Position numbers and translations under genes: made by a program. A stretch of 43,293 bases of DNA from a phage. The stretch is from the sequence record PV357169.1. One strand, written 5' to 3'. This document shows positions 351 to 43,293 of this stretch, piece after piece; the first letter of the stretch is position 1, and every line of letters starts with the position of its first letter. Under the pieces are notes generated by a model. That model was not told where the DNA came from and did not search any database. It saw nothing but the letters and a program-made list of their open reading frames with translations.

Positions 351-531
351 CTTTTGTAGGTTAGTATTTATAAGTACTATTCCAGGTGCATATACGAAGT
401 TATCTGCAAGTGGGTACAAGAGAAGCGCCTGGAACATCACAAGGACTTCTCCCCCTGCGCAGGTGTATATCTGAACTCGAAATTTGTTATACTTACCCGA
501 CAGGGTCCCTCACCCTCAACGCGCCCAATTG

Positions 532-544
532 CCCCCATAGGGGG
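532..544 (+). repeat. Perfect palindrome CCCCCATAGGGGG
   Basis: Seen directly; as I recall the same 13-mer lies in the T7 terminal repeat, which suggests proximity to a genome end. Confidence 0.6.
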
Positions 545-561
545 TGTCCTGGGAGAATTTA

Positions 562-980: not shown

Positions 981-1056
981 ACACTCTGCCGTACTCTGTC
1001 GCTATCCCCAGAGCTATCCCTTACTCTTACTTTCATTCGAAAGCTATTCTGAAATG

Positions 1057-1073
1057 ATGTTACAGGAGTAGGA
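1057..1073 (+). promoter_or_regulatory. Copy 1 of conserved motif ATGTTACAGGAGTAGGA (candidate phage-RNAP promoter or nick-site element)
   Basis: Identical 17-mer also at 21259-21275 and 33408-33424; a variant at 13115-13134. Confidence 0.4.
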
Positions 1074-7648: not shown

Positions 7649-8439
7649 TGGACCAGCCCTGGCTTAGAGCGTGCAAGCGCCTGGCCGTGGGGCAGAGGGC
7701 ACGCTTTCGGTGCTGCGGCAGGGACTCCGCCGGGGTGCTCTATAATAACCCGGATGCCTGGGAATACTATTGCCACCGCTGCAAACAGGTAGGCAAGGAG
7801 CGCAAGCAGTACCAGCGCATACAGTTACAGGAAGAGCCGAGGGTGCAGCCCTCTGCACCTGCAGATGCAATTTGCATTAGCCAAGCGCCTGCAGAAACGC
7901 AGAGTTTTATTTACGGATTCCTTGCTTCAAAGGGAATCATGCCTGAAATGGTGGGGGATGCAGAATGGAGCAAAGAGAAACAGCGGATAATCTTCCGTGT
8001 CGGAAGCGCTGCTCTGGGCCGTGCAGTACATGCTCGGCAGCAACCGAAGTGGGTAATGTACGGCCAGCCAATAGCTTTCGCTGTCGCGGAACCTGCCGTA
8101 GCACCGGCTGTAGCTGCGGGCGCTCCTCTAAAGGTCGTGCTCACAGAGGACTTACTCTCAGCCCTGAAGATACAGCACGCAGTTACGAGCTACAGTGCGT
8201 TGAACGTGCAGGCTATAGCTATGCTGGGTACACGCTTGCCCACGCAGCTAAGGGCCTGGCTGATTCAGAATCGCCCGGAAGTGATTCTAATGTTGGACAA
8301 TGACCCGGCAGGACATGCTGGGGTAGCGGCAACACGCCGGGCACTGCGCCCGTTCATGCAGTGCCGAGAACACTACTTCGCTGCGGATCCTAAGGACGCA
8401 GAAATCAAAGAGATACTGGAGGCATTAACTTGGACTTAA
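7648..8439 (+). CDS. DNA primase (zinc-ribbon + TOPRIM)
   Basis: CCGRDSAG...YYCHRCKQ zinc-binding pattern; acidic TOPRIM motifs LTEDLL and MLDNDPAG. Confidence 0.7.
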   Translation: MDQPWLRACKRLAVGQRARFRCCGRDSAGVLYNNPDAWEYYCHRCKQVGKERKQYQRIQLQEEPRVQPSAPADAICISQAPAETQSFIYGFLASKGIMPEMVGDAEWSKEKQRIIFRVGSAALGRAVHARQQPKWVMYGQPIAFAVAEPAVAPAVAAGAPLKVVLTEDLLSALKIQHAVTSYSALNVQAIAMLGTRLPTQLRAWLIQNRPEVILMLDNDPAGHAGVAATRRALRPFMQCREHYFAADPKDAEIKEILEALTWT

Positions 8440-9871: not shown

Positions 9872-10019
9872 ACCGTCCGACATTAACTATCTCGACGAAG
9901 AGGTAATTAAGGCGTACGCTGCATCTGTGGGTACTTTCAGCATACGGCCCGTGCTAATTAGCAGCCGGCTGATTGTGCACTTGGCTGTCAATAAGGCGCG
10001 GAGGATTAATTGGAGATGA
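9864..10019 (+). CDS. Hypothetical protein (51 aa)
   Basis: Internal ATG of track ORF 9831-10019 with GGAGAAGG RBS. Confidence 0.35.
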   Translation: MLKPSDINYLDEEVIKAYAASVGTFSIRPVLISSRLIVHLAVNKARRINWR

Positions 10020-10465
10020 CAGATTGTATCGACCACGGGCAGAAGGGAAGCACTTGCCGAGGAAAGTGCGCTGGATATGGCCGCTCCAGATTTGATGGAG
10101 AGACAACTGGAAGCCACCGCAAAGCGTATTGTATAGCCCACAACTTGAAGCTGAGTGATATCGCGGGACTTGTAGTCCGGCATTCGTGTGACAATCCTCG
10201 GTGCATAAATCCGGAGCACCTGCTACTAGGGACTTCTAGTGATAATATGCAGGACCGAAATAAAGGTGCGCGTAATTTGCTGGGCAGCCGCAACCCTGCT
10301 GCCAGACTTACCCCAGAAGACGTGCACAGTATACGAGAAGCATATGCTGGCGGTGAGACCCAGGTATCTATAGCGAGACGCTTCGGGATAAGTCAAGGAT
10401 ACATATCTAATATCATAAAGGGGAGGGTATGGAATGAGCAGAAGCATCCTGATAACGGATTATGA
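10010..10465 (+). CDS. HNH homing endonuclease (copy 1)
   Basis: HSCDNPRCINPEHLLLGT HNH core; paralog of 13155-13589; 3' end overlaps the DNA polymerase start by 32 nt. Confidence 0.8.
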   Translation: MEMTDCIDHGQKGSTCRGKCAGYGRSRFDGETTGSHRKAYCIAHNLKLSDIAGLVVRHSCDNPRCINPEHLLLGTSSDNMQDRNKGARNLLGSRNPAARLTPEDVHSIREAYAGGETQVSIARRFGISQGYISNIIKGRVWNEQKHPDNGL

Positions 10466-12991: not shown

Positions 12992-13114
12992 TGATATAGG
13001 TGGACCCTTGGGTGGTGTAGGGGGTTAGGGTAGCATGAGAATTAGCTAGGGTCAAGCAGATAATTAATTAAAATTATTTGTTGACTCTGACTTGATTCTG
13101 TGATTTACCGAGAA

Positions 13115-13134
13115 TTAATGTGATACGAGTAGGA
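13115..13134 (+). promoter_or_regulatory. Variant copy of the conserved motif (TTAATGTGATACGAGTAGGA)
   Basis: 16/19 identity to the 21259 copy; 20 nt upstream of the HNH copy 2 start. Confidence 0.3.
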
Positions 13135-13154
13135 ACAACATAAGAGGATACCAA

Positions 13155-13589
13155 ATGTCGATGTGCATTGACCATGGGTATACCAAATGCCTTAATAAGA
13201 ACGGGTACCGCCGGGCATGGTATAAGCCAACTAAACAATTGGAGCTTCTGCACCGGGTGGTGTACGCTGAGCATAACGGGATAGACATAAGGGCAATGGC
13301 CGGGCTGTCTGTTAGACACACCTGCGATAACCCTAGGTGCATTAATCCAGAGCACTTAGTGCTAGGGACGCACTTGGATAATATGAATGACCGTGCGGAA
13401 CGTGGAAGGAACCCAGATGTACGGGGAGAGCGAAACCCAAAAGCACTGCTATCTTGGGACGCCGTGCGGGATATTAGGGCCAACTATGTCCCGTACAAGA
13501 AAGGTATGCGGCAACACTTTGCTAATAAGTATGGTGTGGGTGTACATGTAATCAGTGACGTGATAAGTAACAGGAGCTGGAATGCCTAA
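13155..13589 (+). CDS. HNH homing endonuclease (copy 2)
   Basis: RHTCDNPRCINPEHLVLGT HNH core; AAGAGGA RBS. Confidence 0.8.
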   Translation: MSMCIDHGYTKCLNKNGYRRAWYKPTKQLELLHRVVYAEHNGIDIRAMAGLSVRHTCDNPRCINPEHLVLGTHLDNMNDRAERGRNPDVRGERNPKALLSWDAVRDIRANYVPYKKGMRQHFANKYGVGVHVISDVISNRSWNA

Positions 13590-14562
13590 GTTAAACACAA
13601 TCAAGCTATTCACCAAAGAGCAGCACGTAGATATCCTAAGCAAGCACAGCTCTAACGTGGACGCTGCAGCCGCCTACAACAAGCTGGCAGGACTAGCTGA
13701 GCCGGTGGTGTACCGCCAGATGGTGAAGTACTGGCGCAGCATCTTCCTAGACCACAATGGTAGCAAGGGTAAGGCAGTATCTCACATGAAGGAGGCACTA
13801 AAGCTCATACAGCCTAGCCCCACTGATGACATCGGTAAAACCTTCGTACCGGAAGTATGCCACCGTATTCTCGTTGTCGGTGATCTGCATGCCCCCTATA
13901 CTCACGTAGATGCCATGGACTTCCTAAAAAGTGTGCGGGATGAATACTGTCCTGACATGGTGGTACAGGTTGGTGATGAGACGGACGGCCACGCTATATC
14001 ATTCCACGAAAGTAACCCGAACCTAGACAGTGCCGGGGTGGAACTGGAGAAAGCTAAGCTAGTGCTGGAGGAGCTGCATGAACTATTCCCGAACCTTCTT
14101 GTTTGCGATTCCAATCACGGGAGTCTTGTATATCGCCGCGCCAAGGCTCACGGCTTACCAGTTCAATTTATTAAGCGATACCGGGACATTCTATTCCCCG
14201 AGCATAGTGCTCCAGGTTGGTCGTGGGCCGATGCTTGGGTGCTTAGTACACCTCTCGGGCCCGTCCGGTTTCAACATCAGGTTAGCGGCGACTTCATGCT
14301 TAACGCGAGCCACGAGAGAACGTCGCTCGTTTTGGGGCATGAACATGGGCGCTTCGAAGTACAATATGCGGCTTCTTCTACGGCACTGTATTTTGGCGCA
14401 TATGCAGGGTGCCTGATTGACCGCAAGAGCATGGCCTTTGCTTACGGCAGACTCACCCGTAAGAAACCAATCCTGGGTGTACTGGTAATCACGGAGGGTT
14501 GTCCCCAGTTAATTCCGATGTTACTTGACGACAATGGTCGTTGGGTTGGTCGTTCTAAATAA
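13582..14562 (+). CDS. Calcineurin-like metallophosphoesterase (putative nuclease/phosphatase)
   Basis: Signature order GDLHAP, GDETDGH, DSNHG, GHEHG. Confidence 0.7.
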   Translation: MPKLNTIKLFTKEQHVDILSKHSSNVDAAAAYNKLAGLAEPVVYRQMVKYWRSIFLDHNGSKGKAVSHMKEALKLIQPSPTDDIGKTFVPEVCHRILVVGDLHAPYTHVDAMDFLKSVRDEYCPDMVVQVGDETDGHAISFHESNPNLDSAGVELEKAKLVLEELHELFPNLLVCDSNHGSLVYRRAKAHGLPVQFIKRYRDILFPEHSAPGWSWADAWVLSTPLGPVRFQHQVSGDFMLNASHERTSLVLGHEHGRFEVQYAASSTALYFGAYAGCLIDRKSMAFAYGRLTRKKPILGVLVITEGCPQLIPMLLDDNGRWVGRSK

Positions 14563-16501: not shown

Positions 16502-17469
16502 TGATTATCAACGGGGTTGACTTGTCCCAGCTCGGGGAGCAGCTAGCCCCGCAGAACTCTGGGAAGATTCTGCTATATGACGCAGATTTTTGCGTGTACA
16601 AAGCCGCCGCTACAGTGAAACGTTTAGATACGGCGATACGTCGCTTCTATCAGCTAGTGCTTGAGGACATGTTCTTGGTGGGCTGCTCGGAAGCAGTGGC
16701 GTATCTTACTCCTGCTGGTTGTGCTAAGTGTCTGCGTTGGCACCTACCCACAGCTAAGCCGTACCAGGGGCAGCGAGCTAATCGGCAGGAGCTACCACTG
16801 AAGGCACCTTTGAAGCGGCACCTGATTGATAATCCGGACCAGTATTCTGAGCAAGGTATCCAAGTAGTTAGTAGCGACTTCTTCGAGGCGGATGATCTAT
16901 TCATAATGGACTCATACGCTTTCGGTGAGCGCGGTATACTGATGTCACAGGACAAGGACTCCTGGCTCAGCCCTATGGCCCGGTTCGATATCCCGACCGG
17001 AACCGTGTGGCCTGCCTTGAATAACCCCTTCGGCTGGATTAAGTGGGATGATACCCAGGCTATGCCAGTACGGGCGCATGGCACTAAGTTCTTCTGGTGG
17101 CAGATGCTAGCAGGGGATGACGCAGATAACGTCAAAGGCATCACATTGCTTGATGGGAAGCTCTGTGGGAAGCGAACGGCCTTTGATGCTATCTACCCTA
17201 TTACCTCAGAGCAGGACGCCGCAGAATTCGTTGTAGCGGCTTATGCTCGAAACAACCAAGACGTACTCGCAGAGGCTGAATGCCTGTGGCTGAGGCGCTC
17301 CCAGTCAGATTCAGCGTACCTGTATCTGATGTCACTGTTGACTACTCCCAGTCTGCGTGACTGGGTGCACTCGCTGCACGAGTACCATAAACAGCACATA
17401 CAGTGGATACAGGAGCACCCAGACAATGGCGAAGATGACTGCGAAGGAAATGAGCCTGCGGGCGATTGA
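16501..17469 (+). CDS. 5'-3' exonuclease (FEN/PIN-like, T7 gp6-like)
   Basis: Acidic clusters LLYDADFCVYKAA, FEADDLF, GDDADNVKG. Confidence 0.7.
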   Translation: MIINGVDLSQLGEQLAPQNSGKILLYDADFCVYKAAATVKRLDTAIRRFYQLVLEDMFLVGCSEAVAYLTPAGCAKCLRWHLPTAKPYQGQRANRQELPLKAPLKRHLIDNPDQYSEQGIQVVSSDFFEADDLFIMDSYAFGERGILMSQDKDSWLSPMARFDIPTGTVWPALNNPFGWIKWDDTQAMPVRAHGTKFFWWQMLAGDDADNVKGITLLDGKLCGKRTAFDAIYPITSEQDAAEFVVAAYARNNQDVLAEAECLWLRRSQSDSAYLYLMSLLTTPSLRDWVHSLHEYHKQHIQWIQEHPDNGEDDCEGNEPAGD

Positions 17470-18783: not shown

Positions 18784-21252
18784 ATGATTAGCGCCCTGAA
18801 TACGGTTGTAGTACCAGAGGAAGCACTGGTGGAACGCCAGTTGGAGCTTGAAGAGACCTACAAGATTCGCGGCATTGAACGTGCTCGCAAATTGATTACC
18901 GATGCTCTACAAAACGGCGGGATTATGAACCTGCCAATGACTCAGCGTATGCTCACCTCTGCGTATGATGTAGCCTCTGCAGCCATTGAGGAAATGCGTA
19001 ACGTTAAAGCCCCAGGTATTGGTGGAAAGTACCGCCGATTCCTGCGCTTAGTCCCCTTGGATGTCCTAACTACTCTGAGCCTGTGCACAATGTTTGAGGC
19101 GTTCAGTGTAGCCCCTGGTGAGTCCGCCAGTCGCCGCCAGACAGCTCAGGCAGTGATGTCCGCTCTGGGTAGGAATGTACAGTCAGAGCTGCTGGCCCTA
19201 CAACTACGTAATGTTGCCCCAGCGTATATGGACCGGGTATATGAATACCTCACTGAGCGCCGTACTAAGTCGCCTACGCACATTCTACGTACGCTCCGCG
19301 CCAGTGCTGAGAACGTGCACTATGGGCATGAGCCTTGGACCAACGCTCAGAATATTTCTGTGGGACGTCTGCTGTGTTCCGCAGTGTTTGAGACAGGGCT
19401 GTTCCAGTGGAAGACGGGTAGTGGGAACTTGAGTATGCTATATCCCGCAGATAATGTTATGGAAGCATTTCAGCAGTTAGTGGAATCTGCTGACACTGTA
19501 ACTATGAAGCCTCCGATGCTGGTACCGCCGGTGCAACATACTACACTGTGGGATGGTGGATACCTCACCCCAATCGATAACCGTGGGACGTACCACAACT
19601 CACACATTGACCGCGCCAGACTGCGTGAAGTAGCAGAAGCATTTAAGTCTGCGGACGGTATCAAGAAGGCACTTAATAAGGCGCAGGAAACTCCTTATCG
19701 CATTAATAAGCAAATACTGGAACTGGTACAAGAAGCACGGGCCTTAGGTATTGGTGTAGGTATGCCGCGCTCAGTGCCAGAGCCGAAACCTGAGTGGTAC
19801 TTAGATGGTGTACCAAAAGAGAATTACACCGAGGAGGAACTCGACCGCTTCGGAGAGTGGAAGACGCGTATGTCCTTATGGTACAGCGCCGACCGTAAGC
19901 GTGTGTCGCAACTGCGTAGTCTATTGACCACGCTAGAGATGGCAGAGGAATTCAAAGATGAGAAAGCCTTGTACTTCCCGACTTGTGTGGACTGGCGGTA
20001 CCGACTGTACTTCAAGTCCTCACTGCACCCACAAGGTTCTGATTTGCAGAAAGCCCTTCTTGAATTCGGACGAGGTAAACCTCTGGGAGAGAGGGGGCTA
20101 TTCTGGCTTAAAGTGCACGTCGCTACATGCTTTGGTTATGACGAAACCCTATTCGAAGACCGCGCAGCTTGGGTTGATGCAAACTTTGCAGAGATTGAGC
20201 AGCTCGCGGATTCTCCTTTTGATTGCCCTGCTTTTACCTCCGCCGACAGCCCTTGGTGCTTCCTGGCAGCCGCTATCGACTTGGTTAATGCTGTACGTTC
20301 TGGATGCCCAGAAGAGTATATTAGCCGAATCCCAGTTGCTATGGATGCTACAAACTCAGGTGGGCAGCACCTCTCAGCGCTCCTGAGAGACCCTGTAGGC
20401 GGACGCCTGACGAACCTGTACTGGGAGGGTAACGACAAGAAAGCGGATCTGTATATGGACGTGAAGCGCCGTACGGACGAGAAGGTGATACTGGACCTGG
20501 ACAAAGAGGATTTCGTTATCCAGAGCACGTACTGGAGAGAGAACGAAATCACTCGAAGCATGACCAAGCGTCCTAGCATGACCTACTTCTACAGCGCCAC
20601 GGTGCGCAGCTGCAGCGACTACATCTTTGCAGGGGCCTGTGAAGAGGGGTATGAAGGAACAGACACGCACAGTCTCTGGAACTTATCCTGCTACCTTGCC
20701 CCTAGAATGCGTAGCGCTATTGAGGAAGCTAACCCGGCAGCAGCAGCAGCTATGGGGTATCTGCAGAACCTAGCTAGGCGTGTACCTGCTAGTCAGCATC
20801 TGCAGTGGAAGACTCCTCTAGGCGGGTTGGTGATGAACCGGTACTCTCAGCGAGAGGAGGTGCGTGTACGTATTGATTGTATGAACCTATCTGCCGTGCT
20901 GGTGCACAACCGTGACTTTAAGACCTGTAATAAGCGCAAGGCTGCCTCCGGTATTGCTCCGAACTTTGTACATAGTCTGGATAGTACGCACTTGATGATG
21001 GTACTCTGTGCTGCAGAAGGTATAGATATTATACCTATTCACGATTCGATGGCTACTCACGCATCTGACGTTGATGCTCTGCACCGCCATATCCGTGAAC
21101 AGTTTGTGAAGCTGTACGAGGAGCATGATCTTCTGGGGGATATTACCCGGGCAGCTGCCGAAGCAGGGGCAGACCTCACAGATTTAGAGATGCCTGCAAT
21201 AGGTACTTTGGACATCCGACAAGTACTGGAATCACCCTTCTTCTTCTCATAA
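18784..21252 (+). CDS. DNA-directed RNA polymerase, single-subunit T7-like (822 aa)
   Basis: Catalytic motifs PVAMDATNSGGQHLSALL and IPIHDSMATH; AAGGAG RBS; sits at the end of the replication module. Confidence 0.9.
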   Translation: MISALNTVVVPEEALVERQLELEETYKIRGIERARKLITDALQNGGIMNLPMTQRMLTSAYDVASAAIEEMRNVKAPGIGGKYRRFLRLVPLDVLTTLSLCTMFEAFSVAPGESASRRQTAQAVMSALGRNVQSELLALQLRNVAPAYMDRVYEYLTERRTKSPTHILRTLRASAENVHYGHEPWTNAQNISVGRLLCSAVFETGLFQWKTGSGNLSMLYPADNVMEAFQQLVESADTVTMKPPMLVPPVQHTTLWDGGYLTPIDNRGTYHNSHIDRARLREVAEAFKSADGIKKALNKAQETPYRINKQILELVQEARALGIGVGMPRSVPEPKPEWYLDGVPKENYTEEELDRFGEWKTRMSLWYSADRKRVSQLRSLLTTLEMAEEFKDEKALYFPTCVDWRYRLYFKSSLHPQGSDLQKALLEFGRGKPLGERGLFWLKVHVATCFGYDETLFEDRAAWVDANFAEIEQLADSPFDCPAFTSADSPWCFLAAAIDLVNAVRSGCPEEYISRIPVAMDATNSGGQHLSALLRDPVGGRLTNLYWEGNDKKADLYMDVKRRTDEKVILDLDKEDFVIQSTYWRENEITRSMTKRPSMTYFYSATVRSCSDYIFAGACEEGYEGTDTHSLWNLSCYLAPRMRSAIEEANPAAAAAMGYLQNLARRVPASQHLQWKTPLGGLVMNRYSQREEVRVRIDCMNLSAVLVHNRDFKTCNKRKAASGIAPNFVHSLDSTHLMMVLCAAEGIDIIPIHDSMATHASDVDALHRHIREQFVKLYEEHDLLGDITRAAAEAGADLTDLEMPAIGTLDIRQVLESPFFFS

Positions 21253-21258
21253 AATTTA

Positions 21259-21275
21259 ATGTTACAGGAGTAGGA
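21259..21275 (+). promoter_or_regulatory. Copy 2 of conserved motif ATGTTACAGGAGTAGGA, abutting the first post-RNAP gene
   Basis: Exact 17-mer (20-mer TTAATGTTACAGGAGTAGGA shared with copy 3); at the replication/structural module boundary. Confidence 0.45.
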
Positions 21276-21719
21276 ATGAAGTTAAAACACACTAGTAAAA
21301 CACCCAATACTCACTCACTAAAAGTTCTGCATAAGCACGATGATATTAGAGAAGCAGTGAGGGCTCTGCACGAACTTGGTCACGGCATTAGTCGGGGCCT
21401 TACCACAGAGCAACACTATTGGAGAGTACTAAAAAGTATACTGGGTAAACAGTATATACTAGGAGTCTATGACTCCCGGGGCGACTTAGTAGGTGCTGTC
21501 AGTTACTACCCAGAAGCTGTAGAGGACTGCCATTACGTAGAGCCTGTGTTGTACACAGACTTCTTCGTATTGAAACCAGGAAACAGTGAGGCAATGCTTG
21601 TAGTTATGAAGGGTCTGCAAGCAATCGCTAAGTGTATGCGAGCTGGGCGCATCGCCATTAGTCGCAATACATCGGATAATACTTACAAAACAACTTACCA
21701 TTTAGTGAGGTCAGCATGA
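21276..21719 (+). CDS. Hypothetical protein (147 aa)
   Basis: First ORF after the RNA polymerase. Confidence 0.6.
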   Translation: MKLKHTSKTPNTHSLKVLHKHDDIREAVRALHELGHGISRGLTTEQHYWRVLKSILGKQYILGVYDSRGDLVGAVSYYPEAVEDCHYVEPVLYTDFFVLKPGNSEAMLVVMKGLQAIAKCMRAGRIAISRNTSDNTYKTTYHLVRSA

Positions 21720-21979
21720 GCGGTGGATTAGGTAAACTGTTAGGTAAGGCCACGGATATGCTTGGCCTTACTGATAACGAAGGATTAGAACAACAGCAGC
21801 GCATGGCTGAGCAGCAGGCTGAGGCAGCAAAACAGCAGGCAGCCTTAGAGGCAAACAGTGCAGCTGACAATATTGCTGAGGTAAACCCCTCCGGCGCGGC
21901 CTCTGCATCTGCAGATGCAATTACGTCTGAGCAGAAGAAACGGCGACGGGCAGGGCAGAGCAACCCCCTGGGCCTGTAA
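21716..21979 (+). CDS. Small hypothetical protein, possibly virion-associated (87 aa)
   Basis: Gln/Ala-rich; immediately upstream of the portal gene. Confidence 0.5.
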   Translation: MSGGLGKLLGKATDMLGLTDNEGLEQQQRMAEQQAEAAKQQAALEANSAADNIAEVNPSGAASASADAITSEQKKRRRAGQSNPLGL

Positions 21980-21988
21980 GGAGGAAGC

Positions 21989-23584
21989 TTGGACTATAAA
22001 AAGACATTAGCGGAACTGTTCCTGGGGGACCAGGATGCTGGCGTACTGGATGCGTCAGAGAAGTTTGCTGAGTGGACGCTACCTACAATCTTTACCCGAG
22101 AGCTCTATACTGATGGGCGGCGTATGCAGCTTAGTCGAGACTATCAGAGTACAGGTGCTCAGCTGGTCAATACAGCAGCGACTAAAATTGTAGGTGCGTT
22201 ATTCCCGCAAGGTACTAGCTTCTTTCGGTTCTCTAAGAGTGCAGCCCTTGACAACTTTATTAGTAGTCTGGGAAGTTCTAGCACTGCGGAATCCCGTCTA
22301 TCCGAGGTAGAGAACACCGCCTCTCAGAAGGTGTTTGAGAAGGATGGGTATGCTGCTAAGCTTCAAGCTGTGAAGTTGCTGCTTATCACCGGGAACGCAT
22401 TGGAGTATATCGATGAAAGAACCGGGAAATCCATTATCTACTCGGTCCGTAACTTTACCGTTCGAAGGGATGGTAGCGGGAACGTGCTGCGACTCATTAT
22501 CAAGGAGCGCGCCAGCATCCAGGACCTCCCAGAAGACATTCAAAAAGCACACTACAACGGACGGGACCCCTACAGCGACATTGATATCTACACTGCCGCT
22601 TGTCGTAAGATTAAGCACCTTCCAACTGGAGAGGAAGCAGTAAGCTATGAGGTGTATCAAGAAGTTGATGGCCGTCGCCTAGGAGAGAGCAGCACCTACC
22701 CTGAGCTGGAACTTCCGTATAACGTATTGGTGTGGAACCTGGTTAATGGTGAGCACTATGGACGCGGTCTGGTGGAAGACTATGCGGGTGACTTTGCGCG
22801 GCTATCTGTGCTGACCGAAGCGTTGACCAACTACGAGATTGAGGCCTCCCGCCTTATCCCTATGGTTGATGCTAGTTCTGGACTGGATGTGGACGAGTTC
22901 TCTCAAGCCGAGACCGGTGAGGCAGTACAGGTTGGTGGTGGTGGTAGTAATGGTAACACCAAGTCCCCTGTAACAGCTTACGAGGGTGGTGCAGCTCAAA
23001 AGATTCAGTGGATTGCTAGCGACATTCAGATGCTTGAGCAGAAACTGGCTCGTGCGTTTATGTACACAGGCAATGCTCGACAGGGTGAGCGTGTAACTGC
23101 TTATGAGATTCGTCAGAATGCTAAAGAGGCAGAGTACGCTATGGGTGGTGGATTCAGCATCCTCAGTGACTCCTGGCTGCGTAAGCTCGCGTACCTGTAT
23201 ACTATCGTGGCGTATCCTAAGTTCAAGGTGTACCTCACCGAGGGTGTAGTGGATATCAACGTGATGGTAGGTACTGCAGCACTAGCTAAAGCAGCAGCAG
23301 CAGATAAACTGCTAGAAGCTACCCAGGCTATGCAGCTGGCTATTCCTGTGCTCAAACAGCTCACTCCTCGCTTTAATGAGGATGCATGCGTAGATTGGTA
23401 CTTGGATGCATACGGTATTGTAAGTGGACCGTTCATGCTCACAGAAGAGCAACTGCAAGAGAAGCAGCAAGTTCAAGATAATGCAGCGGCGGCATCAGCA
23501 GCACAAGCACAGTCGCAGGTACAAGATCTCCAGGCAGCGGATCCTACCGTAGCAGGACAACAACTAGGCCTGTTACCGGGCTAA
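21989..23584 (+). CDS. Portal (head-tail connector) protein, T7 gp8-like
   Basis: GERVTAYEIR...GGGFSILS and GEHYGRG segments parallel recalled T7 gp8; TTG start with AAGGAGG RBS. Confidence 0.8.
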   Translation: MDYKKTLAELFLGDQDAGVLDASEKFAEWTLPTIFTRELYTDGRRMQLSRDYQSTGAQLVNTAATKIVGALFPQGTSFFRFSKSAALDNFISSLGSSSTAESRLSEVENTASQKVFEKDGYAAKLQAVKLLLITGNALEYIDERTGKSIIYSVRNFTVRRDGSGNVLRLIIKERASIQDLPEDIQKAHYNGRDPYSDIDIYTAACRKIKHLPTGEEAVSYEVYQEVDGRRLGESSTYPELELPYNVLVWNLVNGEHYGRGLVEDYAGDFARLSVLTEALTNYEIEASRLIPMVDASSGLDVDEFSQAETGEAVQVGGGGSNGNTKSPVTAYEGGAAQKIQWIASDIQMLEQKLARAFMYTGNARQGERVTAYEIRQNAKEAEYAMGGGFSILSDSWLRKLAYLYTIVAYPKFKVYLTEGVVDINVMVGTAALAKAAAADKLLEATQAMQLAIPVLKQLTPRFNEDACVDWYLDAYGIVSGPFMLTEEQLQEKQQVQDNAAAASAAQAQSQVQDLQAADPTVAGQQLGLLPG

Positions 23585-25727: not shown

Positions 25728-25770
25728 GCGCCCCTGGTGCCTTCGGGTGCCGGGGGCTTTTTTTTTTTGT
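25728..25770 (+). terminator. Rho-independent terminator after the capsid module
   Basis: GC-rich hairpin with TTCG loop (GCGCCCCTGGTGCC-TTCG-GGTGCCGGGGGC) followed by T11. Confidence 0.8.
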
Positions 25771-26383: not shown

Positions 26384-27478
26384 ATGGCACAATCATTAGA
26401 AGGCACCATTCAGAGTTTGCTCCAGGGTGTGTCCCAGCAGATTCCAAGAGAGCGCCAGCCCGGGCAACTTGGGGCTCAACTGAACATGCTCAGTGACCCG
26501 GTATCCGGAATACGTAGACGACCCCCAGCAGAGATTGTATGGGAGAGTAGTATCGACAATCCGGACCTAGACTCCCTGTATACAGAATACGTTGAGCGTG
26601 GTTCCGACGGTAGGCACCTGCTGATTAACACCAGTAACGGTAATTGGTGGCTATTGTCCAAGGATGGCAAATCCATTGTAAACAGCGGGAACGACCCGTA
26701 CTTCGTAACAACGGTAGGGCAGACCTCTATCCAGACTGCGAGTATTGCTGGGTTGACCTACATCCTGAATACAGAGATGGCTCCGAATGCAACTGTGGAC
26801 AACACTGGTCGAATTGACCCGAGCACCACGGGATTCTTCTACATCAAGACAGTGGCCTTCCAGAAGCGCTGGGAGGTTACTGTATCCTGGACAGGTGGTT
26901 CCGTATCAGGTTATTACAACGCCCCTGATGCAAGTCACGGCGAATCCGCAGAGTGGGTTTCCGCGCCGTATGTAGTTAGGGCCTTAATCGACGGGGATCC
27001 TAATGGTCAGGGTATAGGCTCAGCTATTACGGCGGCTGGTGGAAGTATAAGCCGTTTCGAGGGGTATATGTATATATCCGGACTGCCTAATCTCGTAGTT
27101 AGTACATCTGCTGGAGACACCTACGCCGTGGCATCTGGGCAGAGTAGGGTTCATCAAGAACAGGACCTACCTGCACAGCTACCAGCACAGGCTCACGGTA
27201 CGATGTGCCAAGTGGGTACAGCTTCAGCTGAGACAGCGTGGTATCAGTTCGACTATAATTCCCGCACCTGGTCAGAGGTTGGGGCCTACGGTAGCATCTC
27301 CAAAATTACTAACATGCCCCGGGAACTGGCATCGGATGATAACATCATTGCTCGTGAATGGGAGGGGCGTCTTGCTGGGAACGACGAAAACAACCAGGAC
27401 CCTGGGTTTATTGAGAATGGCTACATTACAGGTATAGCAGCATTCCAGGCCGTCTGGTGCTGCTTAGTGGTAGTGTAG
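26384..27478 (+). CDS. Tail tubular protein B, N-terminal fragment (frameshifted gene)
   Basis: 364-aa ORF that ends in an implausible tail (AVWCCLVVV); continues in the -1 frame from ~27415. Confidence 0.6.
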   Translation: MAQSLEGTIQSLLQGVSQQIPRERQPGQLGAQLNMLSDPVSGIRRRPPAEIVWESSIDNPDLDSLYTEYVERGSDGRHLLINTSNGNWWLLSKDGKSIVNSGNDPYFVTTVGQTSIQTASIAGLTYILNTEMAPNATVDNTGRIDPSTTGFFYIKTVAFQKRWEVTVSWTGGSVSGYYNAPDASHGESAEWVSAPYVVRALIDGDPNGQGIGSAITAAGGSISRFEGYMYISGLPNLVVSTSAGDTYAVASGQSRVHQEQDLPAQLPAQAHGTMCQVGTASAETAWYQFDYNSRTWSEVGAYGSISKITNMPRELASDDNIIAREWEGRLAGNDENNQDPGFIENGYITGIAAFQAVWCCLVVV

Positions 27479-32099: not shown

Positions 32100-35000
32100 A
32101 TGGCTCAGTTTCTGAACCAAGAACCGAATCCACAGGAAAAGGATTCTGCTAAGGGCGCAACACTTAAACCTGCGCCTGCGCGTATAGATTGGAACGATGC
32201 GGGTGATGACGGCTTGAATGCACTGGAGCGTGCCTCCTTACTAGCACAGGCCAAGACTCCTGCTACTACAGCTGCAGAGAGCTTTGCGTCTGGTATGGGT
32301 AATAGCATCATAGCTGCAGCTATCCGTAAAGCCTCCGCCCCGGCATTTGTCCCAGAGCAGGGTTTTGATGCTAAGAAGCAATTAAGCACTGATTCACGGG
32401 CTAAACTCTATACCCCTAATCAAGAAGAAATTGATTACTTACATGGAGCAGTGTCTCTGGAGGACTATAACTACCGCATACAGCAGATGCTTGATCAGCG
32501 TCATCGCGATCGCTTAATGGCTGACAACACAATAGCTGGGTTCGCTGGGGCTATAGCAGGTGACTCTCCATTTCTCCTAGCTCCGATGTCTGCGGCAGGT
32601 ATCGCTGGTCGGGCTGGCTTAGCAGTGCGCACTGCTATCCGCGCAGCGGATGTAGGTACGGCTGTTTATGCACAGGACCAACTGGGTCAGTCTGCGGCAG
32701 TTACTGCTCTTGTAGCAGGTGTAGCTGGTCTAGACCAACTCTGGGATATCCGTAGGGCTGTACGCGCATCTACGGCAGCTGCGTCAACTACAAGAGCTGC
32801 TGAGACCACCCCTAATGCTGCTACGGCAACTTCCCGCACTGCTCCGGAAGAAGTAGCAACAAGTCGCAATGTGGTAGATTCCCCTGCTGGCCCGTCTAAT
32901 GCGCAAGCTGATAGTGCTGCGGTTGCTAAAACCACTGACGGTTTACCAGAAGGTTTAAGCTTGAACGTGCTGGATGATGTAGAGCACCACGCTTACTCTG
33001 GTGTACGCGTACCTGGTATAGAGGTAGAAGTAAATCGCGGAGATAAGTTGGTTGGTGTTGTGCAGGCTTATCGTGTAGGTGATGATTTACAAGTAGCACA
33101 TGCCTGGGTTGATAAATCCCTGCGTGGCAAGGGAGTAGGTGCGAGCATGTACAAAGCACTAGTTAAGCGCGCTACTGATGCAGGATATGGTAACTTGTTG
33201 TCTGATAACTCAGTAACTGCGTCTGCTCAGCAGATGTGGCGCAAACTTGGTGCTACCAAAACCAAAGATTTTAAAGAACTAACGGACGGTATTGAAGGGC
33301 AGCGTTATGCAGTCTCTGCGGATGAAAAGTCCCCACTCTTTACTCTAGACTTGAAACGTCCTGTGTTTGACCCAGATGCGCCTACAACTCGTACAGCGAG
33401 GGATGTTAATGTTACAGGAGTAGGAGAGGGGGAAGAAATCCTCACCAAAGCACTGGATGAACCGATAAAAGTCCTTAGAAACAACACTACTACTGTTAAC
33501 ATTAAAGCGCAGGACGTAGTTCGATTCCTAAAGACCTCTGAGCATTTATCTAAGGGTCAGAAGGCTATCCTGGACACCCTGGGCGATGCAGTACAGGACA
33601 TTGATTTTAAGTTGGTGGCAGGCTCTTCTAACCGTAGCCACTACAGCTTTCCACTGGTATCAAGAACTGATAGGGGTTTTGTATCTTTACGTGCCCCTAA
33701 GAAAGCTAATGGAAGTACTTGGACAACTGTAGGCGACGCCCTACGTGCCATGGACGCCGATACTAGTCGAGTAGCAGTGCACGAGCTGATTCACGCTGCC
33801 ACTACTAGGGCCCTTAAGCGGAATCCTGAAATTGCTAGTAAGCTGGAAGAGGTGCGCGCTGCAATAGCAGCTGATTCAACCCTCAGTGATAAGCTTAAGT
33901 ACTACGCAAGCGATGTGCACGAGATGCTAGCTGGACTAGGTGATAGCCCTGAGTGGGTGGAGTATCTCTCTAAAACTCAATCTCCTACTGGTAGGAGTAT
34001 GCTCCGCCAGATTGGTGAGTACATCATGAATGCCCTGGGGATTCGCACCAAGGGGTCCGCTCTGGAGGATGTTCTGGACGCGTACGAGGATGCTGTCAAG
34101 TGGACAGCAAAGGACTACGCAGAACAAGTTCAGAGCTTCCGCAGCGAATCTTTCCAGGACCTAGCGGATACATCGGTTAAGAATGAGGCCCTGAAAGCTC
34201 AGACTATGATGGACACGGCCAAGCGTAAGTTAGCCACTATGTTCTCCCTGTATGATAACATCGCAGAGGGTAGCGAGGACCTGGCACGCTTACTGGTATC
34301 TGATGCTACTGCTGTAGGCGGTCGTAAACCGTCTGTGGTGGACTTCAAGCGTAACCTTACGTTGGAGATGGATGCTAGTGCCAGTGTAGTTGAGGACGCT
34401 ATACTTGGTGCCCTCAAGGCCAAAGGTGTAGGTTTCATAGACCGCTTCTTCCACCGTAGCAACTTCCGAGCAGCTCGTGCTGACTTAGAAGATCGCTTGG
34501 GCCGTTACCTGGACTCTGCGTACAGCGCTGAGGTTAATGGACGCCCTGTACCTCTGCCGGACTCTGACTTGGTTCCGCTAGTAGAGGCGTACCGCAACTC
34601 CGGCTGGGCCAGTAAGTGGCACGATCACATGACTGCTGCCGGACTGGTGGATGACGGTACTCTGATTAAATCGGACTATTACTTCCCTCGCCAGTACAGC
34701 TACGATAAGATGCGCCAAGGTATTGCAAATGGTCGCTCCCTGGATAATTATCGGGATCTGTTCCGTCAGGCATTGCGTGACGTGTACCCGTCTATGGAAC
34801 CCGAAGTTGTCCAGCGCGTTGCTAAGGAGATGGTTGACGGTATCTATAACGGACGCTCCTCGGCTTCTGGTCCTATGTGGAAGCAACTCATCAATGGTAT
34901 GGGTAATGATGAAGTAGTTATGGCCATGCGTAATGCTGGCGTAGACGAGAGTGCAATCCAGAGTTTCTTGGCAGGTAATGTCCGAGAATCTGGCGCTACC

Positions 35001-36362
35001 TCGCCTGCTAAGAACCTCCGTCAACGTACCCGCTTCAACATGGACAAAGAGTACATCGTAGACGGTCAGGTTATGCGCATGCAGGATCTGATGGATACTG
35101 ATGTAGCCAAGGTAATGCACGGTTACACCAACCGCATGTCAGGTCGTGTAGGTATGGCTTACGCCGGAGTCTCTGACCTAAAAACACTAGAGACGATGAT
35201 TAACGAGTCCAAACACGCTCTGGCTGATTCCGGTAAGTGGGAGAAGACCGTTAATGACACCATCGACTTTATCTTAGGTGGGGCACCAGCCGACGCCGGT
35301 CAAATGCCGGACCTGCTCCGTGCAGCCGGTAACATGGCCAACGCTACCATGCTTAAGAACTCTGGGTTGTACCAGCTTACTGACACCGCTCTAGCGCTGA
35401 AAGAGTTTGGTATGTCCCGAGTACTCCGCAGTATGCGTGAGCAGCCCTGGTTTAAAGAGGGTGCCGTAGCTATTCGCACTCCGGATATGGCTAGTCGTCT
35501 GGATGCAATCCTACGTGGTAGTATCCAGAAGGAGATGCGCTTCCGCTGGTTGAATACCTACGCAGACGATAACTTGGACCTGACCCGTCAGGCTTCCTGG
35601 TTTAATGTCACCCAGAACGTTGGACAGGCTGCGCGTCACGTCAACGGTATGAGTATGGTACATCGACTGCAGGTTAACCTTAACTCAGGTATTGTAGCGG
35701 ATGAGCTCCAGCAGATGTTCAAGGGCGACGCTGAGGCGTTTAAGCGTCTGGAGCGTTTCGGGCTTACCCGCGACGTTGCAGACCGTGCCATTGCTGCTAA
35801 CAAGGCTAATCCTGGTGCTATGTTCCAGCCGGACCTGCAAATGCAGATTGAGGTGGTAGGTACCAGAATGATGGACTACCTGGTGCAGCAAGTACGTACC
35901 GGTGAGACCTCGCACTTCGCACAGTTTAACCCTATTGGCAAGATAATTGTAGGTTACCAGAGCTTCGCCCTGGCTGCCACCAACAAGATTCTACGTAGGG
36001 AGCTGAGCGACGCTGGATGGATTGGCGTAGCCCATATTATGGCGTACCAGTTCCCGTTAATGCTACTGGCTACTATGGCTAAGCATGGTATGGATGGGAA
36101 GGACGTAGACACCCAGAAGCTAATCAGTGAATCTGTGATGGGTATGAGCGCCATTGGTGGGATCTCGCTTCTGCAGGATATCTTCACTGGGGACTCACCG
36201 CGTCACTCCTTGGCGTCTATGGGTTACGTTACAGGGCTGTTGGGTGCGCTGCAGGATCTGGCTACTGGGGATATGGATATCCAGACCTTCACTAAGCAGG
36301 TCCCGTTAATCCAGGAATTCGCTCCTACGCGAGCTATAATCAATAACTTCGGAGACGATTAA
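32100..36362 (+). CDS. Internal virion protein C (T7 gp16-like ejection protein, 1420 aa) with GNAT-like and HExxH segments
   Basis: Largest ORF, in the conserved position; Ala-rich N-terminus; RGKGVG segment (~aa 345) and HELIH (~aa 561). Confidence 0.6.
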   Translation: MAQFLNQEPNPQEKDSAKGATLKPAPARIDWNDAGDDGLNALERASLLAQAKTPATTAAESFASGMGNSIIAAAIRKASAPAFVPEQGFDAKKQLSTDSRAKLYTPNQEEIDYLHGAVSLEDYNYRIQQMLDQRHRDRLMADNTIAGFAGAIAGDSPFLLAPMSAAGIAGRAGLAVRTAIRAADVGTAVYAQDQLGQSAAVTALVAGVAGLDQLWDIRRAVRASTAAASTTRAAETTPNAATATSRTAPEEVATSRNVVDSPAGPSNAQADSAAVAKTTDGLPEGLSLNVLDDVEHHAYSGVRVPGIEVEVNRGDKLVGVVQAYRVGDDLQVAHAWVDKSLRGKGVGASMYKALVKRATDAGYGNLLSDNSVTASAQQMWRKLGATKTKDFKELTDGIEGQRYAVSADEKSPLFTLDLKRPVFDPDAPTTRTARDVNVTGVGEGEEILTKALDEPIKVLRNNTTTVNIKAQDVVRFLKTSEHLSKGQKAILDTLGDAVQDIDFKLVAGSSNRSHYSFPLVSRTDRGFVSLRAPKKANGSTWTTVGDALRAMDADTSRVAVHELIHAATTRALKRNPEIASKLEEVRAAIAADSTLSDKLKYYASDVHEMLAGLGDSPEWVEYLSKTQSPTGRSMLRQIGEYIMNALGIRTKGSALEDVLDAYEDAVKWTAKDYAEQVQSFRSESFQDLADTSVKNEALKAQTMMDTAKRKLATMFSLYDNIAEGSEDLARLLVSDATAVGGRKPSVVDFKRNLTLEMDASASVVEDAILGALKAKGVGFIDRFFHRSNFRAARADLEDRLGRYLDSAYSAEVNGRPVPLPDSDLVPLVEAYRNSGWASKWHDHMTAAGLVDDGTLIKSDYYFPRQYSYDKMRQGIANGRSLDNYRDLFRQALRDVYPSMEPEVVQRVAKEMVDGIYNGRSSASGPMWKQLINGMGNDEVVMAMRNAGVDESAIQSFLAGNVRESGATSPAKNLRQRTRFNMDKEYIVDGQVMRMQDLMDTDVAKVMHGYTNRMSGRVGMAYAGVSDLKTLETMINESKHALADSGKWEKTVNDTIDFILGGAPADAGQMPDLLRAAGNMANATMLKNSGLYQLTDTALALKEFGMSRVLRSMREQPWFKEGAVAIRTPDMASRLDAILRGSIQKEMRFRWLNTYADDNLDLTRQASWFNVTQNVGQAARHVNGMSMVHRLQVNLNSGIVADELQQMFKGDAEAFKRLERFGLTRDVADRAIAANKANPGAMFQPDLQMQIEVVGTRMMDYLVQQVRTGETSHFAQFNPIGKIIVGYQSFALAATNKILRRELSDAGWIGVAHIMAYQFPLMLLATMAKHGMDGKDVDTQKLISESVMGMSAIGGISLLQDIFTGDSPRHSLASMGYVTGLLGALQDLATGDMDIQTFTKQVPLIQEFAPTRAIINNFGDD
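33408..33424 (+). promoter_or_regulatory. Copy 3 of conserved motif ATGTTACAGGAGTAGGA, inside the internal virion protein C gene
   Basis: Exact 17-mer; encodes NVTGVG in frame. Confidence 0.35.
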
Positions 36363-43045: not shown

Positions 43046-43293
43046 ATGAACGAAATGTTCTCACAAGATGGTAAAGGTTCAACGGGAATCTTAACTAATA
43101 AACAAGCAGTGGCTCGACACTTCGGAGTTAAGCAATCAGAGGTTGTTTACTTCTCAGTGGGTGCTCTGCTTGCTGGTTACAAAGTCATCTATGACAAAGT
43201 GACACAGCGTGCTTACTCATTACCTGCTGATATTGGTTCTGGGGTTACTGTTGTAAGCCTTAGTCCTGCCGGAGTATTAGTACACTCTGCCGG
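43046..43293 (+). CDS. 5' part of the junction-spanning gene (continues at 1-314 after removing the 91-nt overlap)
   Basis: ATG with GAGG RBS; the ORF runs off the end of the window. Confidence 0.5.
   Translation, partial: MNEMFSQDGKGSTGILTNKQAVARHFGVKQSEVVYFSVGALLAGYKVIYDKVTQRAYSLPADIGSGVTVVSLSPAGVLVHSA
43203..43293 (+). repeat. 91-nt exact duplicate of window positions 1-91 (circular-assembly overlap)
   Basis: Seen directly; identical base for base. Confidence 0.95.

Follow-up and report, generated by a model that had tools for sequence, protein, structure and literature searches.

The window analysed here, a 43,293-nucleotide stretch of phage DNA (sequence record PV357169.1), is assigned by database comparison to a KP34-like podovirus (Autographiviridae, Slopekvirinae, Drulisvirus). 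The + strand carries all of the long open reading frames (ORFs), including every gene with a match to a KP34 homologue. The nearest records are Klebsiella phage KPV811, Escherichia phage Minorna and Shigella phage SFN6B, and the hosts of this KPV811/Minorna/SFN6B branch, to which the window belongs, are E. coli, Shigella and Klebsiella. None of the searched records is identical to the window; the top match reaches 95.9% across 86% of the first 25 kb. Nucleotides 1–91 are identical to nucleotides 43203–43293 at the other end of the contig, which suggests an overlap from circular assembly. Because the physical left end of KP34 (nt 1–40) aligns to window positions 507–546, the contig is circularly permuted, by ~506 nt with respect to the ends that the virion DNA is likely to have, with the terminal repeat probably beginning close to 507.

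The single-subunit RNA polymerase (RNAP) gene of the window terminates in a stop codon at 21250–21252, and the next gene begins with the ATG at 21276. The short interval between the two genes is occupied by a 17-nt motif, ATGTTACAGGAGTAGGA, which a motif search of the window found in three exact copies, all on the + strand (copy 1, 1057–1073; copy 2, 21259–21275; copy 3, 33409–33425). The earlier note had reported the 17-mer at these three places; its first two positions and the strand are exact, and its third, given as 33408–33424, moves by one nucleotide to 33409–33425. The gene context described there agrees with the ORFs, in that copy 2 adjoins the first gene past the RNAP ORF (18784..21252; next ATG 21276) and copy 3 is located within the internal virion protein gene (ORF 32100..36362), which encodes 1420 amino acids and whose KP34 homologue is annotated as an internal virion protein. 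Copies 2 and 3 have 20 nt in common, as also noted earlier (TTAATGTTACAGGAGTAGGA, at 21256–21275 and 33406–33425), and the corresponding stretch of copy 1 is ATGATGTTACAGGAGTAGGA. The three copies contain a 16-mer, T(A/G)ATGTTACAGGAGTA, that starts at 1055, 21257 and 33407 on the + strand and has no exact match on the - strand of the window. Each 16-mer is directly followed by GGA, the sequence context of the predicted +1 G. The view that the exact 17-mers exceed chance was upheld by a search with up to three mismatches, which returned five matches against 0.13 expected, a count reached in none of 100 shuffles. A match near 16939, inside an exonuclease-like ORF, was rejected as a further copy; it has 5 mismatches in 20 positions (~0.3 such matches expected), recurs only in KPV811, the closest relative, and is probably a chance match. 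Copy 1 is located ~550 nt from the predicted genome end, as judged from the alignment of the KP34 left end to 507–546, and the KP34 counterpart is at 475. The features of the window are summarized in Table 1.

Table 1. Transcription-related features of the window (positions on the 43,293-nt stretch)
Feature	Sequence	Position	Strand	Remarks
Putative strong promoter copy 1, S2 type	TGATGTTACAGGAGTA	1055..1070	+	Predicted start G 1071; upstream of early genes
Promoter-like variant (fourth element)	TTAATGTGATACGAGTAGGA	13115..13134	+	17/20 match; mismatches at -10, -8 and -6; intergenic
Single-subunit RNA polymerase gene, 822 aa		18784..21252	+	95% identical to KP34 RNAP
Counterpart of KP34 weak promoter W	ACTTTGGACATCCGACAAGT	21205..21224	+	19/20 to KP34; inside 3' end of RNAP gene
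Putative strong promoter copy 2, S1 type	TAATGTTACAGGAGTA	21257..21272	+	Predicted start G 21273
Intrinsic terminator, 12-bp stem + T10		25730..25767	+	Downstream of capsid gene
Putative strong promoter copy 3, S1 type		33407..33422	+	Inside internal virion protein ORF 32100..36362; predicted start G 33423

The motif is matched by an experimentally characterized promoter. Lu et al. (2019) purified the KP34 RNA polymerase and located its main in vitro start at nt 22213 by 5'-RACE (PMC6834552). In that study, the KP34 strong promoter was defined as 5'-T(A/G)ATGTTACAGGAGTA-3' with the start at the base after GTA, and three copies were listed, at 475–490 (TGATG...), 22197–22212 right after the RNAP gene and 33721–33736. 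Both KP34 16-mers were equally active in vitro, the common 14-mer alone was much weaker, and the two 5' bases were required for full activity. A weak promoter, W (ACTTTGGACATCCGTCAAGT, 22144–22163), was weakly active in vitro (PMC6834552). Copy 1 of the window is identical to KP34 475–490, copy 2 to 22197–22212 and copy 3 to 33721–33736. The window thus has the same 16-mers as KP34 (S2 as copy 1 and S1 as copies 2 and 3), the same GGA context and the same three syntenic positions, with no difference of substance between the two sets; the activity of the KP34 promoter was shown in vitro, and that of the window copies is predicted from their sequence. All three syntenic sites have identical promoter sequences in KPV811 and SFN6B and a variant with C at -7 (...GTTACCGGAGTA) in fHe-Kpn01. 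Conservation of the motif in related genomes, which the earlier note had named as a means of checking its proposal, is therefore found at the syntenic sites of KP34, KPV811, SFN6B and, as the -7 C variant, fHe-Kpn01. Among IMG/VR loci, a counterpart of copy 2 was found downstream of the RNAP gene in all 62 loci in which both the specificity loop and the promoter could be read, and a counterpart of copy 3 in 33 of 33 related loci.

The polymerase and the motif vary together. The specificity-loop segment of the window RNAP, RVRIDCMNLSAVLVHNRDF, is encoded at 20863–20919, and the loop segment RVRIDCMNLSAVLVHNRD, which aligns to T7 R746–N762, is identical in the window, KP34 and SFN6B. The RNAP of fHe-Kpn01 has LTIMRV in the loop where the window has LSAVLV. 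In 65 IMG/VR loci that surround RNAP homologues, the RNAP-adjacent site always has A at -7 when the loop reads LSAVLV (30 loci and the window) and always C at -7 when the loop reads LTI[MLV]RV (32 loci). Because linkage alone could explain this pattern at the RNAP-adjacent site, the distant in-gene copy, 12.5 kb away, was checked in 33 contigs that were joined to the RNAP loci by contig name. At the in-gene site, A occurs with LSAVLV in 14 contigs and C with LTIMRV in 16, and none is discordant (30/30 contigs). In the window, the -7 base is located at 1064, 21266 and 33416, and the phage falls into the A class (LSAVLV, -7 A). Drulisviruses fall into two polymerase/promoter specificity classes in which the switch is concerted at all of the promoter copies examined. 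Such co-variation would be predicted of a promoter that is read by the specificity loop; with only two RNAP classes, shared ancestry could contribute to it. The promoter pattern would tell the specificity class of a phage (-7 A/LSAVLV or -7 C/LTIMRV), and the natural A/C polymerase–promoter pair is a candidate for orthogonal in vitro transcription systems.

The in-gene copy is also constrained at the nucleotide level. Copy 3 encodes (V/A/T)-N-V-T-G-V-G, and across 31 distinct sequences, positions 33407–33427 are invariant except for 33416, the -7 position, where the codons ACA and ACC both specify Thr. Third-codon positions are variable at one of seven sites in the motif and at 71 of 92 (77%) around it (Fisher p=0.0015).

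With high confidence, the motif is the strong promoter used by the T7-like single-subunit RNA polymerase that the phage itself encodes. For this identification, the copies match a promoter validated by experiment and lie at its syntenic sites, the polymerase has the same specificity loop, promoter and loop co-vary, and the motif is constrained at the nucleotide level. The reading as a T7-type promoter put forward in the earlier note was borne out, in that the copies match the KP34 RNAP strong promoter exactly and occupy the same syntenic positions. As a KP34-type strong promoter in its three canonical places, the motif is already known, and its identification leaves knowledge of phage transcription unchanged.

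In T7 RNA polymerase, an AT-rich recognition loop reads the promoter at ~-17 to -13 and the specificity loop reads it at ~-11 to -7. By analogy with T7, the phage polymerase would bind the 16-bp duplex T(A/G)ATGTTACAGGAGTA, with the recognition and specificity loops contacting these same intervals (~-17 to -13 and ~-11 to -7, respectively). The DNA would remain duplex and bound from ~-17 to -5 and be melted from ~-4 onward, and RNA synthesis would begin at the G after GTA. Initiation in this phage would accordingly be expected at 1071, 21273 and 33423, late starts that are assignable by pattern matching, here and in any KP34-like phage. From copy 2, just past the polymerase gene, transcription of the late structural genes would begin. 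Copy 3 would re-initiate transcription within the internal virion protein gene and thereby boost the distal late genes (tail fibre, terminase, lysis, tail spike). Copy 1 precedes the host-type early promoters and would match T7 phiOL in position. We infer this division of labour among the three copies.

Transcripts from copy 2 would meet the intrinsic terminator downstream of the capsid gene, which probably ends or attenuates them. The terminator is near-identical to the KP34-group terminator and is closest to the NTUH-K2044-K1-1 version (list in PMC4411677); the KP34 terminator is annotated at 26623–26660. At the 5' end, a transcript begun at 21273 would have only 3 nt (GGA) of leader before the ATG at 21276, and translation of the first gene from the copy 2 transcript may therefore be poor. 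An AGGAG at 21266–21270 stands at Shine–Dalgarno distance from the same ATG, and we infer that the first gene past copy 2 is translated mainly from read-through transcripts. These bases of copy 2 would thus have two uses, to bind ribosomes on read-through RNA and, in the DNA, to act as the promoter of a new transcript.

The late promoters of T7 are ~17–23-bp duplexes that are used by a single-subunit RNAP with a start at G, and ~17 promoters are found per genome. One T7 promoter is located directly after the RNAP gene (phi1.1A, 5848) and another close to the left end, ahead of the host promoters, as in the window. The likeness in sequence is limited to TAAT at the upstream end and TAGG at the start, and the window contains three strong promoters in place of ~17. 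The phage-specific promoters of LUZ19 and phiKMV, 5'-GgtTATGTCACacACAnnGG-3', were identified by ONT-cappable-seq (Putzeys et al. 2024, PMC10914365). They have an ATGT[C/T]AC block and GG(A) at the start in common with the window motif, and the placement is the same, after the RNAP gene and in the internal virion protein gene, but positions -6 to -1 read ACACAnn in LUZ19/phiKMV and GGAGTA in the window. In phikF77, the LUZ19-type motif is found shortly past the RNAP gene (21016 and 21197), at 35481 in the internal virion protein gene and at 736 in antisense orientation; the left-end copy is on the - strand in such phiKMV-type phages, in contrast to the sense orientation of copy 1. The predicted promoters of Pantoea phage LIMElight (NC_019454) have the core A[C/T]GTTA[C/T]AG in common with the window. 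The LIMElight promoter at 22024, after the RNAP gene, corresponds to copy 2, and that at 14061, after the DNA polymerase gene and a small ORF, corresponds to the fourth element described below.

The earlier note had weighed an alternative in which the copies are localized single-strand nick sites of the phiKMV type, and the nick consensus that it named was correct. The consensus of the phiKMV group is 5'-CGACxxxxxCCTA/CTCCGG-3' (Kulakov et al. 2009, quoted in PMC3517423), and its core, CCTACTCC, is contained in the reverse complement of the motif. A nickase would cut the - strand within CCTA/CTCC, at 1069/1068, 21271/21270 and 33421/33420 in + strand coordinates, and would generate strand-specific interruptions in virion DNA. 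Nicks occur in the wider phage group, the phiKMV sites likewise number few strand-specific copies per genome, and the 8-nt core extends to 10 nt in the fHe-Kpn01 class, whose members carry the full 10-mer CCTACTCCGG on the - strand at the three promoter sites; the chance of a specific 10-mer within the 21-nt motif is ~2e-5. However, the match in the window is confined to the 8-nt core on the strand opposite to that of the phiKMV sites relative to the genes. The CGAC-N5 half is missing at all three copies, CCTACTCC is followed by TG rather than GG, and the full consensus CGAC-N5-CCTACTCCGG has no match on either strand of the window. In phikF77, the nick motif CCTAoh pCTCCGG is located on the gene-sense + strand at 2811, 6386, 14327 and 24659, whereas the window has its core on the - strand; every phikF77 site is intergenic, whereas copy 3 is intragenic, and the positions are mostly non-homologous. 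In phikF77, promoters distinct from the nick sites stand at the counterparts of copies 2 and 3, and by position and sequence (ATGT[C/T]AC...GGA) these promoters, rather than the phikF77 nick sites, are the homologues of the window copies. The idea that the phiKMV nick sites are themselves the promoters of that group was ruled out, as the LUZ19 motif from ONT-cappable-seq differs from them (PMC10914365) and the phikF77 promoter motif (21016, 21197, 35481 and 736 on the - strand) is found apart from the nick sites. In LUZ19, the nick motif is unrelated to transcript abundance. PhageTerm and S1 nuclease analysis of fHe-Kpn01 gave a single extra break, at nt 7873, and not at its three motif sites (500, 22091 and 33631). 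Co-variation with the RNAP specificity loop is predicted for a promoter and not for a nickase site. The nick-site alternative is thus very improbable and was abandoned in favour of the promoter. A combined reading, in which the template strand is nicked in a fraction of virions at the promoters or at the element at 13115, is hardly more probable. It is suggested by the fHe-Kpn01-type promoter, whose positions -8 to +2 (CCGGAGTAGG) are the exact reverse complement of the nick core CCTACTCCGG, and by the fourth element, which is placed like the phikF77 nick at 14327 in that both follow the DNA polymerase gene and a small ORF (a loose homology). If it were true, the nick core of phiKMV would represent a promoter-initiation module in inverted form, whose recognition or melting would be coupled to nicking.

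Two further explanations are each extremely unlikely. The motif could be mainly a translation signal, a conserved ribosome-binding region around AGGAG, as copy 2 places AGGAG 5 nt upstream of the ATG at 21276. However, copy 1 has no start codon within ~60 nt, copy 3 is internal to an ORF with no in-frame start nearby, the conserved block reaches 11 nt upstream of AGGAG to -16, and the two 5' bases are needed for full activity of the KP34 promoter (Lu et al., PMC6834552). Alternatively, the copies could be targets or landing pads of homing HNH endonucleases, or recombination hot spots, that are kept by adjacent mobile HNH insertions. The HNH gene at 13155..13589 directly follows the fourth element, many relatives have an extra gene between the RNAP gene and copy 2 (offsets of ~754 or 890 instead of 406), and the extra gene of fHe-Kpn01 between the RNAP gene and the promoter is annotated as HNH. 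Nevertheless, the motif is present and unchanged with or without an adjoining HNH gene, and in the window neither copy 1 nor copy 3 lies beside one. Free-standing homing genes are commonly found near promoters, which would explain the association without the motif being a target. The free-standing HNH genes (10010–10465 and 13155–13589 in the window) are differently scattered among relatives (L018, L035–L038 and others). Promoter copy 2 stays attached to the downstream ATG, and not to the RNAP stop codon, despite the inserted gene in relatives.

Next to the three strong promoter copies, the window contains a fourth, divergent element. The earlier note had described a variant at 13115–13134 upstream of an HNH gene; the variant is present there, and its match is counted as 17/20 rather than 16/19. 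About 0.002 matches of 17/20 quality are expected in the window by a binomial estimate. The element follows the DNA polymerase gene and a small ORF and is located 21 nt upstream of the ATG (13155) of the HNH gene, the product of which matches Pfam HNH_3 (E=4e-10). If the fourth element is a promoter, its predicted start is G 13132. The 20-mer is identical in KP34, fHe-Kpn01, KPV811 and SFN6B, and the 21-mer TTAATGTGATACGAGTAGGAA is identical in 55 of the 56 IMG/VR loci that reach this position, which include both RNAP loop classes. Past the element come a conserved AAGAG(G) ribosome-binding site and a next gene that varies (HNH in the window), and the conserved block of the element extends into the downstream Shine–Dalgarno sequence. 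Conservation is also seen in an upstream block, TGTTGACTCTGgCTTGATTCTGTGATT, which follows an AT-rich stretch (flanks 13078–13160). LIMElight-type phages have a consensus phage promoter at the same relative position. In those phages the site after the DNA polymerase gene has the same consensus as the site after the RNAP gene, whereas the window has a fixed divergent variant. By eye, the likeness of the element to a sigma-70 promoter is a weak match (TTGATT-N18-TAATGT). Most simply, the fourth element is a putative promoter that is weaker or differently regulated. The element does not track the RNAP class, and its three central mismatches are fixed; a simple promoter model would leave this independence of RNAP class unexplained.

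Two other repeats of the window were observed. An early-region hairpin motif, AGCCTATAGC(A/G)TCC...GCTATGTGAA, occurs twice on the + strand, at 2152–2183 and 2935–2966. The hairpin AGCCTATAGC...GCTATGTGAA is the putative phage promoter of Eriksson et al. (2015), once proposed for KP34; it gave no transcription with the KP34 RNAP in vitro (PMC6834552) and was therefore rejected as the promoter. The second repeat is a 23-mer, CCTCTGCA[C/T]CTGCAGATGCAATT, located on the + strand at 7850–7872 in the primase ORF and at 21900–21922 in ORF 21716..21979. Its two copies are in the same codon phase, encode SA(P/S)ADAI and are both syntenic in KP34, fHe-Kpn01, KPV811 and SFN6B, and 55 of 65 IMG/VR loci contain the second copy (CCTCTGCATCTGCAGATGCAATT). 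The sole reported Drulisvirus nick, at fHe-Kpn01 7873 (PhageTerm and S1 nuclease), lies inside the first copy of this repeat (7866–7888); like the early-region motif, the region around the break starts with AGCCTA, followed by a hairpin. If the group has a nick motif, the 23-mer repeat would be a better candidate for it than the promoter.
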